Part shown: piece by piece, positions 17,181 to 30,329 of the stretch
Position numbering within the stretch: the first letter of the stretch is position 1
How the letters are laid out: every line of letters begins with the position of its first letter
Source: Eledone cirrhosa
Lineage: Eukaryota
NCBI GenBank assembly: GCA_964016885.1
Contig: OZ024763.1
Span: forward strand, 23,498,001-23,562,000
DNA: 64,000 nucleotides
Reading direction: 5' to 3'
Notes under the pieces: model-generated
Database searches by the model: none
The model's input: only the letters and a program-made list of their open reading frames with translations
What the model was told of the DNA's origin: nothing
Program-made: the position numbers and the translations under genes

Positions 17181-17235
17181 TAATTCGCTAACAATGTTTC
17201 ATCCATATCGTGGGGCAGGTATCATCAGAGCATTA
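17181..17235 (-). ncRNA. Degenerate minimal type I hammerhead ribozyme motif
   Basis: Minus strand: taatgct-CTGATGA-tacctgccccacgatatggat-GAAA-c-att-g-TT-agcgaatta. The core is intact and stem I is gct/agc, but stem II is weak and loop III is one base short. Confidence 0.45.
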
Positions 17236-17425
17236 TAAACAAAAATATAGTTCTGAATATAAGCTCTACCAAGCTTAGTCACCAGAACTGTAGAGATACA
17301 GTACAGGATAATAAGAGGGAGATTGCAAATGAGAGGGATGGAGAGAATGCGTGATGGGGTTGCTAGTCAACATTATAGCAAAACATGAGAATACAAGAAT
17401 ACAGGCAGATTTTCTCACAAGAGAC

Positions 17426-17596
17426 TGAGGCACGTGAAGGCACACAAAGGCAATCAAAAGCAATTAAAGATAATTAAAAAATAATAAAAAAAATAATTAA
17501 AAAATAATTAAAAAATAAATAAATAAAAATAAAAATAATTAAAAAAAGGGGGGAAAAATAAATTGAGGCATGTGAAGGCACACAAAGCAACAAAAG
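17426..17596 (+). repeat. ~34-bp direct repeat bracketing a ~100-bp A-rich tract
   Basis: tgaggcacgtgaaggcacacaaaggcaatcaaaag (17426-17460) and tgaggcatgtgaaggcacacaaagcaacaaaag (17564-17596). Confidence 0.75.
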
Positions 17597-18116
17597 AGGG
17601 TATGCATTGGTTACTATAGAAGACATGTGGTTTAGTTTCCCATGACTTAGAGTCATAGAAATACTATGGGACCCATAAGGTACCTTCAGAAGGTCAAAAG
17701 GTGATTTTATCTCCCCCCCCCCCCCATAGTATGCGCAATTAAGGTATAGCAGTAGGTTACGGAGTTACGTGGACTAGCACCACACCGATATAAGCCAAAC
17801 ATAGACAAAGCGGGGTTAATGCATAAATAGGCTGAAGCAATCAGTACACAACAAACATGGTTTAGTCACTATTTAAGGCATATTTGGCTAGATTTCATAA
17901 CGCATGTGGATCAACCGTAGATGGTAATCCAATCGCTTTCGTATGTCCCAATCGGCGAGAGGTCATAACAAATGTAGATCGTCCGTAGATGGTAATCCAA
18001 CCGTCTTCATATGTTTACCAATACATACGGGCACATGGTAATATGTGTTACAAGCTGATTTTACACATCCAAATTCTCATACGCTCAAAACTCCAGCCTG
18101 AGATGTGTTACATGTC

Positions 18117-18714
18117 CAAGTTATAACTCCAAATCCTCATATGATTATACGTATCCCACTCCGTATTCCTGGCGTAACCGCGTCCAAATATTGCTTGATT
18201 ATATGCAACAGTAATTGCCCGTTGACCCGTCGCGCGCTGCACGTGGATCAACAAGCAACACAAAACACAGAGAATAACATAAAAGTGCTCAGATCAGATG
18301 ACAAATTCCACCAGGCACAACAGCATGTCTGTTAATGGGTGGAATTATGGATGTGATCTGAGCACTTTTATATTATCTTCTGTGTTTTATGTTAGCGGCG
18401 GTGTTTATTTTTTGCGGAGTCGGGTTCCTGGATTGTTGCGAGATATGGGAGCCGTCTTGTACGACTGATGTATACCTGTATGAGTACGACCTCAATTAAC
18501 AGACATACTGTTGTGCCTGGTGGAATTAGGGACCTGATCTGAGCACTTTTATGTTATTCTCTGTGTTTTGTGTTGCTTGTTGATCCACGTGCTGCGCGCG
18601 AGGGGTCAACGGGCAATTACTGTTACATATAATCAAGCAATATTTGGACGAGGTTACGCCTGGAATACTGAGTAGGATACGTATAATCATATGAGGATTT
18701 GGAGTTATAACTTG
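18117..18714. mobile_element. Fold-back / MITE-like element with ~220-bp inverted arms
   Basis: 18117-18336 is the reverse complement of 18495-18714 with scattered substitutions. The spacer begins with a third partial arm copy. No TSD is visible. Confidence 0.7.
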
Positions 18715-18777
18715 ATAAGGATATATAGATTTAAAAGAATCAAAGTTAATGTTGGAGCATATGTATAAAATTTATTG

Positions 18778-18867
18778 GCATATTACAATTGTTTCTTTAT
18801 CGATCAGCACAGGGTACAGTCAAGATGACGGGATCCCAATTCTTTCTCGATATCTCATCAGATATGC
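18778..18867 (-). ncRNA. Minimal type I hammerhead ribozyme (GUA site, AAUU loop III, enlarged loop II)
   Basis: Minus strand: gcatat-CTGATGA-gatatcga...tcgataaa-GAAA-C-AATT-G-TA-atatgc. Stem I is a perfect 6 bp. An inverted 3' half copy lies at 18907-18949. Confidence 0.78.
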
Positions 18868-19525
18868 GAGCTTATATTTACAAAGGCTCAACTATACTCA
18901 GCTTATATCGATCTCGAAACAATTGTAATATGCCAATATAGTTTGTACAAAAGCTGCATATATATATGTATATATATATATATATATATATATATATATA
19001 TATATATATATATATATATATATATATATATATATATATATATATATATATATGTACGTATATATATATATATATTATATATATATGTATATATGCATAA
19101 TTATGTATATATATATATGTGTGTATATATATATAAATATATATACCTACACATGTATATATGTACGTATATATATATACTTATATATATATACATACCT
19201 ACATATATATATATATGCTTACATATATATATATATGCTTACGTATATATAAGCTTACGTATATATATATATATATATGTATAAACATAATTTTATATAT
19301 ATATTTTATATATATATATATATATATATATATATATATATATATATATATATATATATATATATATATATATATATATATATATATATATATATATATA
19401 TATATATATATATATATATATAAATGTAAGTATGTATGTATACGCACATACATATATGTATACAGACGTACAGTAGCATGCACATATATATATATATATA
19501 TATATATATATATATATATATATAT

Positions 19526-28160: not shown

Positions 28161-28565
28161 TTGTATTATGAATATATATATATATATATATATATATATA
28201 TATATATATATATATATATATATATATATATATATATATATATAGTAAAAATAATAAATTTGAAGAATAAAATCCAAAGAGGGCTCTATAAGGATAAATA
28301 TATAAGAACCGTAGAGCAAACATTTATTAAAATATTTTAATAAATATTTATATATATATATATATATATAAAAGAGAAAACACAGGTAACATTAAGAGAT
28401 GGATTTTATCCAGGTATTTACGACCGTTTCATTGGTAAGTGCAACCTTATATTGCTATACTGCAAATAGCAGCCACTCAATTATAATTGTTGTTCACAGT
28501 CCGAATTTTCAAAATAGTGGATCACAATAAGCAATTTTTTGCTTCTCTAACTATATATATATATA

Positions 28566-29587
28566 TCTATATATATAAAACTGTGGTTGTCTGTCTGTCT
28601 ATCGATTTTTGGCACACATCTCCTCTTAGAATCTCTCACGGAATTGCACCGAAATTGCTATACTTGTACATTGAGCCCTAGCGAAGACATCGGGAAAAAA
28701 ATATTTCAAATTGACCCACCCTATGTGACGAAATCGAATATAATGTATCGATTTTTGAGCGTAAGTTATCAGTTATTTCCCTTTGTTCTGTTTACATTGA
28801 GCGTCTTACGTAAAAAATTACGCTGGCTTTCTCAGCGTTTAAAATGACATTAACACAATACACGAACAGTTGTCGAGCCAGCAAAATATTGACCTGCAAA
28901 ATTCATCAGTTCGAACACTAAGCTTCCGTTTTGCTTCATTTCCATTTAAAAGCATTTTAAAACAATATTTTTACTTGAAAACAAGTCTATTTAAAGACTA
29001 CGTAAAACAAGCAAATATTTCGTCGTTAGGCGTGCAGACAGACAGTCGTGCAGACAGACAGTCGTTCAGAGAGGTGATATAGGCGTGCAGACAGACAGTC
29101 GTGCAGAGAGGTGATATAGGCGTGCAGACAGACAGTCGTGCAGAGAGGTGATATAGGCGTGCAGACAGACAGTCGTGCAGAGAGGTGATATAGGCGTGCA
29201 GACAGACAGTCGTGCAGAGAGGTGATATAGGCGTGCAGACAGACAGTCGTGCAGAGAGGTGATATAGGCGTGCAGACAGACATAACTGATAATTTGGTTA
29301 CGCTAATGTTTTTCTCTGCGTTGCAGTGTTTACATTTTCGATCTTTGTTAATAAATAACCAGTGCAGTTTCTATCCCCAGCATCCTCTTTTGTTATAACA
29401 TTCGGGTTATCGTTATGTTTTCTTAACTTCATAAGGCATATTGTTGGTTGAGGGAATATTAATCAAAAACACCACATGCAAGTCTGCACAGTAGACACTA
29501 CAGTTTTTAAGCCAAGAAAGAAACTTAACATTGTAACTTTAACACAGCTACTGAGCGACCCCGAGCAACGCCGGGCTTTACTGCTAG
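28566..29587 (+). mobile_element. Non-autonomous Helitron (~1.0 kb)
   Basis: Inserted between A and T with no TSD. 5' TCTATATATATAAAA followed by (CTGT)n. 3' hairpin CCCG-agcaacgc-CGGG (29560-29575) followed by terminal CTAG. Confidence 0.8.
29027..29282. repeat. 37-bp GC-rich minisatellite, ~6.5 copies, inside the Helitron
   Basis: TAGGCGTGCAGACAGACAGTCGTGCAGAGAGGTGATA starts at 29027, 29080, 29117, 29154, 29191, 29228 and 29265. Confidence 0.95.
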
Positions 29588-29742
29588 TATATATATATAA
29601 GCAAAGGGATATTTAATTTGTTGGTAATTCAACAATTATATTTATAACAGATTCGAAGCACTCGACTGGTTTCTATCCAGGCAAAACTTAAACGGTTAAG
29701 GTATCATTCCTGGGTATGTCAATATTTATAAAACAAACTTTG

Positions 29743-29803
29743 TATTTTATCTGATGAGAGCGTACCAAAGTTTAGGTACCTTCGAAATATATATAATAGA
29801 ATA
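29743..29803 (+). ncRNA. Minimal type I hammerhead ribozyme (AUA site; predicted cleavage after 29795)
   Basis: tattttat-CTGATGA-gagcgtacc-aaagttta-ggtaccttc-GAAA-T-ATAT-A-TA-atagaata. 8-bp stem I (one G.U), stem II with 8 of 9 positions paired, palindromic loop III. Confidence 0.82.
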
Positions 29804-29861
29804 AATATCGTTTTATATAGTTTCCATTTATTAATATCATTGATATATTTATATATATATA

Positions 29862-29917
29862 TAGAAAAAGTATGACCCGACGGCAGAGCTCAAGCCGTTT
29901 CGACAGCTATTTCTGGA
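29862..29917 (-). mobile_element. Family C fragment (inverted arm only)
   Basis: TAGAAAAAGTATGACCCGACGGCAGAGCTCAAGCCGTTTCGACAGCTATTTCTGGA follows (TA)n and starts at the same point as the left arms of copies 1 and 2. Confidence 0.7.
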
Positions 29918-29972
29918 GTAAATCAGAATTTTTAGCCTCTCTCTCTCTCTCTCTCTCTCTCTCTCTCTCCCT

Positions 29973-30329
29973 CATACACACACTGATTATTTCTCACGAA
30001 TGAAACAGTTCTAGTCCTGTAGAAGCTCTTCTCTCTCTCTCTCTCTCTCTCTCTCTCTCCCTCTCTCTCTCTCTCTATATATATATATATATATATATTA
30101 CTCTAAGGACCTACCTTATCGAGTGCTTTGCTAACTCATCATTTCATATAAGTAGGCCGAATTTGCTTGCAAACCGCCAGAGATTCGATTTTACTAAATT
30201 TCCAATTATATATATATATATATATACATATATATATATATATATATATACATATATATATATATATATAGAAGAGCTTCTACAGGACTAGAACTGTTTC
30301 ATTCATGAGAAATCATCAGTGTGTGTATG
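29973..30329. repeat. ~59-bp inverted repeat pair (29973-30031 / 30271-30329) with an HHR-like core
   Basis: catacacacactgattatttctcacgaatgaaacagttctagtcctgtagaagctcttc and its reverse complement, with 2 mismatches. Confidence 0.8.

Follow-up and report, generated by a model that had tools for sequence, protein, structure and literature searches.

Hammerhead ribozymes in a TA-rich island of the Eledone cirrhosa genome: ends of Penelope-like elements and tandem retrozymes, probably inserted at (TA)n

The window analysed here is a stretch of 64,000 nt of contig OZ024763.1 (C24) from the 3.0 Gb genome of Eledone cirrhosa. It contains a 16.9 kb TA-rich island (13975..30850) in which 189 TA tracts make up 25% of the sequence, and which carries type I hammerhead ribozymes of the kind found in Penelope-like retroelements (PLEs) and in retrozymes. 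A structural descriptor that demands a stem I of at least 5 bp, CUGANGA, stem II, GAAA, the A15.1-U16.1 pair and NUH identifies exactly seven folds in the 64 kb, each a three-way junction closed by stem I. An earlier interpretation made from the letters (hereafter the sequence-only reading) had claimed at least seven complete type I folds, and all seven are found where it placed them. They fall into five families (A-E) with hundreds to more than 10,000 exact genomic copies each. The minus strand carries a family C fold (18778..18867) with a 59-nt stem II domain, an 8-nt palindromic stem III and a GUA site (H17 at 18784), a family A fold (19747..19791; GUU site, H17 at 19754) and two family B folds (20639..20681; GUA site, H17 at 20645, and 21184..21226; H17 at 21190). 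The plus strand carries a second family A fold (21865-21909; GUC site, H17 at 21902), a family D fold (25444-25582) with a 104-nt stem II domain and a GUA site (H17 at 25574) and a family E fold (29743-29803; AUA site, H17 at 29795). Not all of them are small: the stem II domain measures 104 nt in the D fold and 59 nt in the C fold. The first B fold has U.U at the base of stem II, and this mismatch (10.1/11.1) is present in both B copies and is a family trait; the axolotl ribozyme HHR_Amex2 likewise has U.U at the base of stem II.

The number of motifs is not matched in shuffled sequence, which was the control proposed for them: after 1,000 rounds of local dinucleotide shuffling of the island, no shuffled sequence contains a fold under the strict descriptor and four contain one each under a loose descriptor. 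The folds fail the Rfam gathering score; among the matches listed (the best 150 of 192), which are mostly microsatellite matches to microRNA models, two sub-threshold hits to Hammerhead_HH9 reach 38.9 and 36.4 bits against a cut-off of 52, so that the best score is at least 38.9 bits. The Rfam models are not built for these variants. The palindrome that runs from A15.1 to U16.1 is perfect in all seven folds (6 or 8 nt), and a perfectly palindromic stem III is the mark of hammerheads that cut as dimers. According to the energy model the active monomers lie 0.9-7.6 kcal/mol above their energy minimum. The double hammerhead, by contrast, comes to within 0.4-1.9 kcal/mol of the minimum for the cofold in all seven cases and is 11-17 kcal/mol below two active monomers. 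The modelled dimer fold is favoured, in agreement with the dimer model of PMC4209133. Covariation was counted in stems I and II for the A and B relatives, as opposed to C, D and E: among seven distinct A/B-type sequences, which are related to each other, both sides have changed in seven of 14 pairs and 92.9% of cells remain paired, a score reached by none of 500 shuffles. Self-cleavage of these hammerheads is predicted; the report that eight of nine Xenopus dimers tested in vitro did not cleave (bioRxiv 10.64898/2026.07.22.740005) weighs against it.

Families A and B consist of non-coding tandem units, each a few hundred bp long, with one type I hammerhead per unit. Counted as exact-pattern matches with reversed patterns as controls, there are 7,878 genomic copies of A and 10,739 of B (30-mers) and 224 of C (19-mers), with no match to any control. 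Family A forms arrays of 466-bp units that are often arranged head to head. In the island it is represented by a 574-nt arm on the minus strand (19526..20099) which comprises 1.23 monomers of 466 bp, is 98% identical to the tandem monomer, crosses the cleavage site and terminates 3' within (TA)n, at monomer position 228; monomer positions 121-228 are present twice. Such a longer-than-unit arm would need a circular or uncleaved multimeric template. It is followed by an inverted, 5'-truncated arm of 297 nt on the plus strand (20090..20386; half ribozyme at 20100-20127) that ends at monomer position 258, which is 30 nt past the left arm and leaves a one-sided tail of the PLE type. A further 5'-truncated A copy (21803..22130, plus strand) lies between TA tracts, again has its 3' end at monomer position 228 and is without the octamer discussed below; in comparison with the 19747 copy, stem II of its ribozyme at 21865-21909 contains a compensatory pair. 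At another locus of the genome, a stretch of contig C1 (G000:C1:5738327-5752443, loci L010-L030) holds about 31 near-identical family A units, one of them inverted at the end, and the same contig contains many two-armed arrays of this kind. Family B has units of 466-540 bp with an internal TA tract and is present in the island as a dimer on the minus strand (20493..21457) with a spacing of 545 bp, its two units being 97% identical and its internal (TA)n variable in length; the (TA)n that separates the two ribozymes of this dimer belongs to the B monomer. A and B are related tandem retrozymes of 466-540 bp that would be copied in trans. Copies of family C have about 290 bp in common. The copy at 18778 has lost the base of stem II, which its relatives retain, and is the left arm of a fold-back whose other arm is a half copy at 18907.

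Family D provides the link to a protein-coding element. The copy in the island (25444..25646, plus strand) is a stub corresponding to the last ~200 nt of a PLE that we assign to the Hydra clade, and is 97.5% identical to a repeat upstream of the open reading frame (ORF) in locus L132. The family has 896 exact 20-mer matches in the genome and none to the reversed control. In the full element, with domains read from their motifs, a reverse transcriptase (RT) followed by a C-terminal GIY-YIG endonuclease is encoded in a single ORF upstream of a terminal repeat that bears the ribozyme, and the D ribozyme lies 1.2-2.4 kb downstream and on the same strand in 11 of 12 copies of the endonuclease domain with at least 86% identity. 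The ORF in L132 contains one in-frame stop. The D stub is thus the 5'-truncated 3' end of an autonomous PLE with ORFs at other loci. The protein displays DKT, YRDD, CxCx5C, CxxC and CxH motifs and has no cysteine pair in the GIY-YIG core (no CCHH), which corresponds to the diagnostics given for the Hydra clade in section 11 of PMC8557442. A first guess that D belonged to the Neptune clade was dropped in favour of Hydra. The assignment to Hydra is putative and rests on motifs read by eye rather than on a tree, because Pfam recognises none of six D ORF proteins, a search of these ORFs against the PDB recognises nothing and the 49 homologues are without names. Further points that speak against it are that the RWK motif reads RWR and that the element exceeds the <3 kb stated for Hydra; in addition most of the D loci were picked for their ribozyme pairs, with L187 coming from an unselected sample. 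A Pfam search with five further proteins gives one weak RVT_1 match and nothing else useful.

Family E is likely to be a PLE end as well. It has 2,342 exact 16-mer matches in the genome (reversed control 0) and forms a fold-back in the island (29591..29846, plus strand) in which an inverted 3' tail (29591-29673) adjoins a truncated copy that carries the hammerhead (29743-29803). Broken PLE-type ORFs are found upstream of E in loci L140, L141 and L153 and none in L142 or L143. D and E have two end classes each. The sequence-only reading had seen no RT or GIY-YIG ORF in the window, and no remnant of this type is found there (best tblastn E value 2.5). It was right that such motifs mark PLE ends and retrozymes and that several families are present.

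It had also listed six degenerate or half motifs, five of which (17181, 18907, 20097, 28414 and 30271) derive from ribozymes. Those at 20097 and 18907 belong to the 5'-truncated A arm described above and to a 5'-truncated C ribozyme (18907..18933, plus strand) that retains the part from GAAA to stem I only. The motif at 17181 is a family K hammerhead (17178..17245, minus strand) with a full core, a stem I of 3-4 bp plus an internal loop and a weak stem II, and with relatives in L067 and L181. The motif at 28414 is a complete hammerhead of family J (28415..28516, minus strand) with the U3-A8 core variant, a 4-bp stem I and one mismatch in stem II; J has 1,846 exact genomic matches (reversed control 0), and PLE ORF remnants are present in the loci of eight of 12 relatives. 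At 30271 lies a family G hammerhead (30276..30319, minus strand) with a 4-bp stem III, a 16-nt near-palindrome and an intact core, the 5' strand of stem I being lost; its twin (29983..30026, plus strand) has lost the same strand and is mutated at core position 8, and full copies of G show compensatory changes in stem I. The sixth motif, 29660, is no half ribozyme; it coincides with the inverted 3' tail in the E fold-back. Four half-ribozymes of family F, at 16833, 26107, 26182 and 29876, had been missed. They comprise a fold-back pair (26107..26215) which retains GAAA, a 5-bp stem III and GUC and has lost the CUGANGA block, and two single halves (16833-16866, plus strand, and 29876-29909, minus strand). 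Only eight of 47 distinct F copies are full, with a U3-A8 or C3.A8 core, and the other 39 end within or just before stem II. Family F was the sole candidate examined for the permuted type-SGC order (site-GAAA-CUGA, PMC10085705), which was rejected given the ordinary type I order of its eight full copies, no SGC descriptor having been applied to the window. The surrounding F repeats (16790-16955, 26085-26310 and 29860-29935) are very abundant TA-flanked fold-backs with 23 motif matches in 730 kb of sampled sequence. In an unselected segment (L264:554-2356), ~592-bp units form an array with two arms; their hammerhead is of the U3-A8 type and has a stem III that is a palindrome of 10 nt.

Taken as a whole, it is highly probable that the island holds the ribozyme-bearing ends of at least nine families, likely written in successively by Hydra-clade PLE enzymes that would cut (TA)n. 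The anatomy of a PLE insertion is present, namely a 3' end in (TA)n, an inverted 5'-truncated copy and a one-sided tail; the A arms that end at 228 and 258 match the inverted copy and 30-40-bp tail described in the legend to Fig. 2 of PMC8557442. The enzyme would nick (TA)n, and target-primed reverse transcription would begin at fixed points, 50-260 nt downstream of the ribozyme, and mostly stop early. Ribozyme-bearing stubs and fold-backs would thus pile up where TA is dense, and each insertion would keep its flanking TA so that targets persist. D is such a stub of an autonomous parent, and E and J are likely to be. The ribozymes may be poor as monomers and active as dimers through the palindromic stem III, releasing RNA of unit length, and A and B would be parasites copied in trans, probably from circles cut out of tandem transcripts by dimeric hammerheads. 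The lone stubs in the island are probably inert, and the B dimer would be the sole place in it where a dimer could form in cis. Cleavage, transcription, circles and mobilisation in trans are proposed here by analogy with the systems of PMC4209133, PMC7229834 and the 2026 preprint. The sequence-only reading had suggested that the whole set is mobilised in trans, which fits A and B only. D, and likely E and J as well, are truncated 3' ends of autonomous PLEs with ORFs at other loci and are thus most simply seen as copies that stem from their own parent element and were dead on arrival. Weighing against this account, an autonomous partner is found neither for A and B in four extended loci nor for C, to which no ORF could be linked, and the PLE ORF that lies beside B in all three of its extended loci ends before B. 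That B is itself the 3' end of this neighbouring PLE was rejected, as the PLE stops before the TA tract where B begins.

The families resemble known systems to differing degrees. For Hydra-clade PLEs, which have been reported from molluscs, Craig et al. (2021, PMC8557442) give (TA)n as the insertion site. Like D, these PLEs are described as having an RT followed by GIY-YIG, DKT, CxCx5C, CxxC and CxH motifs and no CCHH, together with canonical hammerheads, (TA)n targets and inverted 5'-truncated copies with a one-sided tail. Family D differs in its length of ~5 kb, its 2-kb 3' region, its 104-nt stem II domain and its RWR in place of RWK. The minimal hammerheads of PLEs (Cervera and de la Pena 2014, PMC4209133) are similar in that they are predicted to dimerise through a palindromic stem III, comprise many families per genome, occur mostly as single truncated copies and in opposite-strand pairs, and include the U3-A8 variant; the counts given there, obtained with a tighter descriptor, are ~2,000-9,000 per genome in comparison with an estimated 160,000-350,000 here. 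A and B share with the metazoan non-LTR (long terminal repeat) retrozymes (Cervera and de la Pena 2020, PMC7229834; Li, Clavereau and Pollet 2026, 10.64898/2026.07.22.740005) a non-coding tandem structure with one type I hammerhead each, low GC and co-occurrence with PLEs. Unlike these, they have 466-540-bp monomers (150-450 bp being typical), head-to-head arms with PLE tails and a conserved octamer/TATA block.

This block lies upstream of the ribozyme and begins with an octamer, located 100 nt ahead of the core in A and 88 nt ahead in B, which is followed after ~42 nt by a TATA-like word. In the island, the octamer of A is at 19877..19884 on the minus strand, where it starts a predicted promoter block of the small nuclear RNA (snRNA) type and at the same time forms the 5' arm of a predicted hairpin, and each B unit has one octamer, also on the minus strand (20756-20763 and 21301-21308). 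Among five diverged families, conservation is confined to the octamer, the TATA-like word and the ribozyme, and the pattern of octamer followed by core has 31,255 matches in the genome and none in controls. The signature ahead of the A/B ribozyme (octamer, TCAGY, TATA) is of the snRNA type. Among the U6 genes of the host, three of five distinct upstream regions contain the same octamer 11-mer (one with one change) at -76/-77, whereas the U1 and U2 genes lack a proximal octamer and have TCAGT at -56 to -58 with a TATA-like word 23-27 nt later. This layout of the host U6, U1 and U2 promoters is unusual compared with that of vertebrates. The host snRNA genes are themselves arranged in tandem arrays (L208-L218, L221-L234 and L235-L253). 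A two-block model built from nine U1/U2 promoters, anchored by hand after the motif was seen, peaks at octamer+16 in four of eight families and ranks this position 3rd, 7th, 13th and 20th of 836 in the others, with a weak match in A (rank 20 of 836, score -0.1). A and B are predicted to start their own transcription, likely from a promoter of the snRNA type inside the unit. Transcription of A/B multimers by RNA polymerase III is disfavoured since both monomers contain T4-T5 runs.

The strongest alternative is that the octamer is kept as the arm of an RNA hairpin, serving as a structural or enzyme-recognition signal, with transcription occurring by read-through. This is a possibility of some substance, though we lean away from it. 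In A, B, B2 and H (-11.3, -8.9, -12.2 and -5.6 kcal/mol) the octamer is able to pair with an arm downstream of it, and H shows a compensatory change; the poor fit of A to the U1/U2 model, the lack of a proximal octamer in the U1 and U2 genes and an octamer-to-TATA spacing about 4 nt shorter than that of U6 also speak for this reading. However, the octamer arm is invariant while its partner arm varies, three distinct U6 promoters share the 11-mer at -76/-77 (the other two of the five U6 regions do not), and the U1/U2 model places the block among the top 20 of 836 positions in all eight families, with the peak at octamer+16 in four. A precedent for an in-unit promoter exists in newt satellite 2, a hammerhead repeat with an internal snRNA-type promoter that was tested experimentally (cited in PMC2220036) and is transcribed by RNA polymerase II (cited in PMC6765202); in A and B, by comparison, it is a signature that combines a U6-like proximal octamer with the U1/U2-like spacing of TCAGY and TATA. 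In its most extended and tentative form, which we regard as possible without giving it the better part of our confidence, the promoter reading places A and B in a class of self-promoting retrozymes with 31,000 or more members. In each unit, a hybrid promoter of the snRNA type (octamer as in U6, TCAGY and TATA as in U1/U2) would direct an RNA polymerase II start 14-26 nt ahead of the ribozyme and read-through into the next unit, dimeric cutting would then yield promoter-containing circles, and Hydra-clade PLE enzymes would reinsert these, in what would be the most ribozyme-dense animal genome among those compared (~84 per Mb).

Far less probable is the proposal that A and B are satellites spread by amplification at the DNA level, their ribozymes being functionless relics of PLE terminal repeats. 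Arrays of ~30 near-identical units do exist, and local tandem expansion of PLE ends has been proposed in a study in which one of nine dimers cleaved (10.64898/2026.07.22.740005). Against this, head-to-head arms and fixed 3' ends in TA occur at thousands of dispersed loci, and families whose sequences are otherwise widely different show compensatory changes in stems I and II; in four public runs (contigs, of unknown kind) the flanks vary and no variant listed falls inside the ribozyme.

To see whether the island is exceptional, the same descriptor was applied to 73 unselected 10-kb segments (730 kb) taken at round-number positions on large contigs, where it finds 61 folds or 84 per Mb (bootstrap 53-116) compared with 0-1 in shuffles, which extrapolates to a genome load of ~160,000-350,000 folds. 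A TA tract follows within 300 nt downstream of 60 of the 61 sampled folds and of 32% of random positions, and six of the seven folds in the window have one within 230 nt, in line with the suggested targeting of (TA)n. Folds become denser as TA content increases (Spearman 0.39, P=0.0005), and of the 73 segments 43 contain no fold, three contain at least five and one contains seven. One sub-class of folds has 47,360 matches in the whole genome against 71 in controls; as this check pattern is in excess in the sample (10 in the first 390 kb, with 6.2 expected), the estimate for the genome could be somewhat too high. Widening the descriptor (long stem III, short stem I, U3-A8) brings four and eight additional folds in the 730 kb but leaves K, J, F and most of G undetected, and the fold counts are therefore lower bounds.

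With these figures the cluster is dense relative to shuffles, as had been claimed, and about fivefold above the genome mean by length (1.4 folds expected in the island, seven observed, P=0.0006), yet its fold number fits the count of TA tracts. The sequence-only reading had taken the island for a landing zone of several ribozyme-bearing families that target (TA)n. That it represents a special landing zone, a chromatin domain or satellite boundary that attracts insertions beyond its TA content, is very unlikely. The excess by length, the position between two satellite arrays and the presence of at least nine families within 13 kb would be in its favour. From the 189 TA tracts, however, 5.6 folds are expected in the island (Poisson P=0.32 for seven) and 3.9 in the narrower interval of the sequence-only reading (P=0.10), the seven folds amount to about six insertions, one of the 73 unselected segments also has seven and 11 neighbouring 10-kb stretches of C24 hold 12. 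The island is an ordinary TA-rich pile-up of PLE tails and tandem repeats for this genome, although some extra clumping remains beyond TA content, because the excess by length is fivefold and the most TA-rich segments average only 1.4 folds per 10 kb. It belongs to the top few percent, and such spots should number thousands genome-wide. The weakest reading, that of chance folds in AT-rich sequence, could appeal to Rfam scores under the cut-off and otherwise to low complexity only, and is already refuted by the strict shuffles (0 of 1,000), the thousands of exact copies per family and the covariation.

Both element types, PLE hammerheads and retrozymes, are already known, and the cluster itself is ordinary; the interest lies in the genome-wide load, an estimated quarter of a million motifs at ~84 per Mb. 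The hammerhead counts given in PMC7229834, made with differing descriptors, amount to 120,000 for the axolotl, over 6,000 for a coral and ~5,000 for a mussel. A cephalopod load of this size is unreported in the literature searched, though the supplements to PMC8557442 and to the preprint may list cephalopod families; the portion of PMC8557442 covered gives 21 Repbase families plus a few others and no load near 10^5 ribozymes, and that of a 2026 octopus repeat annotation (PMC13282606) does not use the word 'ribozyme'. The young A and B families, with their fixed ends and candidate promoter, make the trans-mobilisation of animal retrozymes by PLE enzymes directly testable, as well as the transcription of protein-free repeats.

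The remainder of the window is made up mostly of satellite. A 53-bp satellite (1-13774; 260 copies, 96% matches), which fills the preceding 10 kb too, is separated from the island by a gap of 200 N, and a 51-bp satellite of ~640 copies with higher-order 7-bp variants (30850-64000) runs a few kb beyond the window. No CUGANGA core is present in either of these flanking arrays. Within the island, 28241..28334 (minus strand) is a 3' terminal fragment of another PLE family which matches the inverted end beside an ORF in L150. A fold-back at 18117-18714 with 220-bp arms (94.5%) and an inner palindrome contains no hammerhead core and is unmatched among the fetched loci. Two fragments that lie in opposite orientation at a distance of 13 kb (16985-17060 and 30100-30197) are contiguous in L191:9637-9820 and represent either a split TA-flanked element or a local rearrangement. 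An inverted pair of a very common ~190-bp repeat, which resembles a short interspersed nuclear element (SINE), occupies 27770-28155; this SINE-like repeat has 284 matches in the 730 kb. Some units of the U6 arrays (L212, L213, L215-L218) have a copy of it within their promoter, and another copy lies just upstream of the D ribozyme in L136. Finally, 28575-29590 holds a ~770-bp repeat, presumably akin to a non-autonomous DNA transposon, which is 97-99% identical to L277 and L059 and is interrupted by a 37-bp minisatellite of 6.4 copies (29047-29282).

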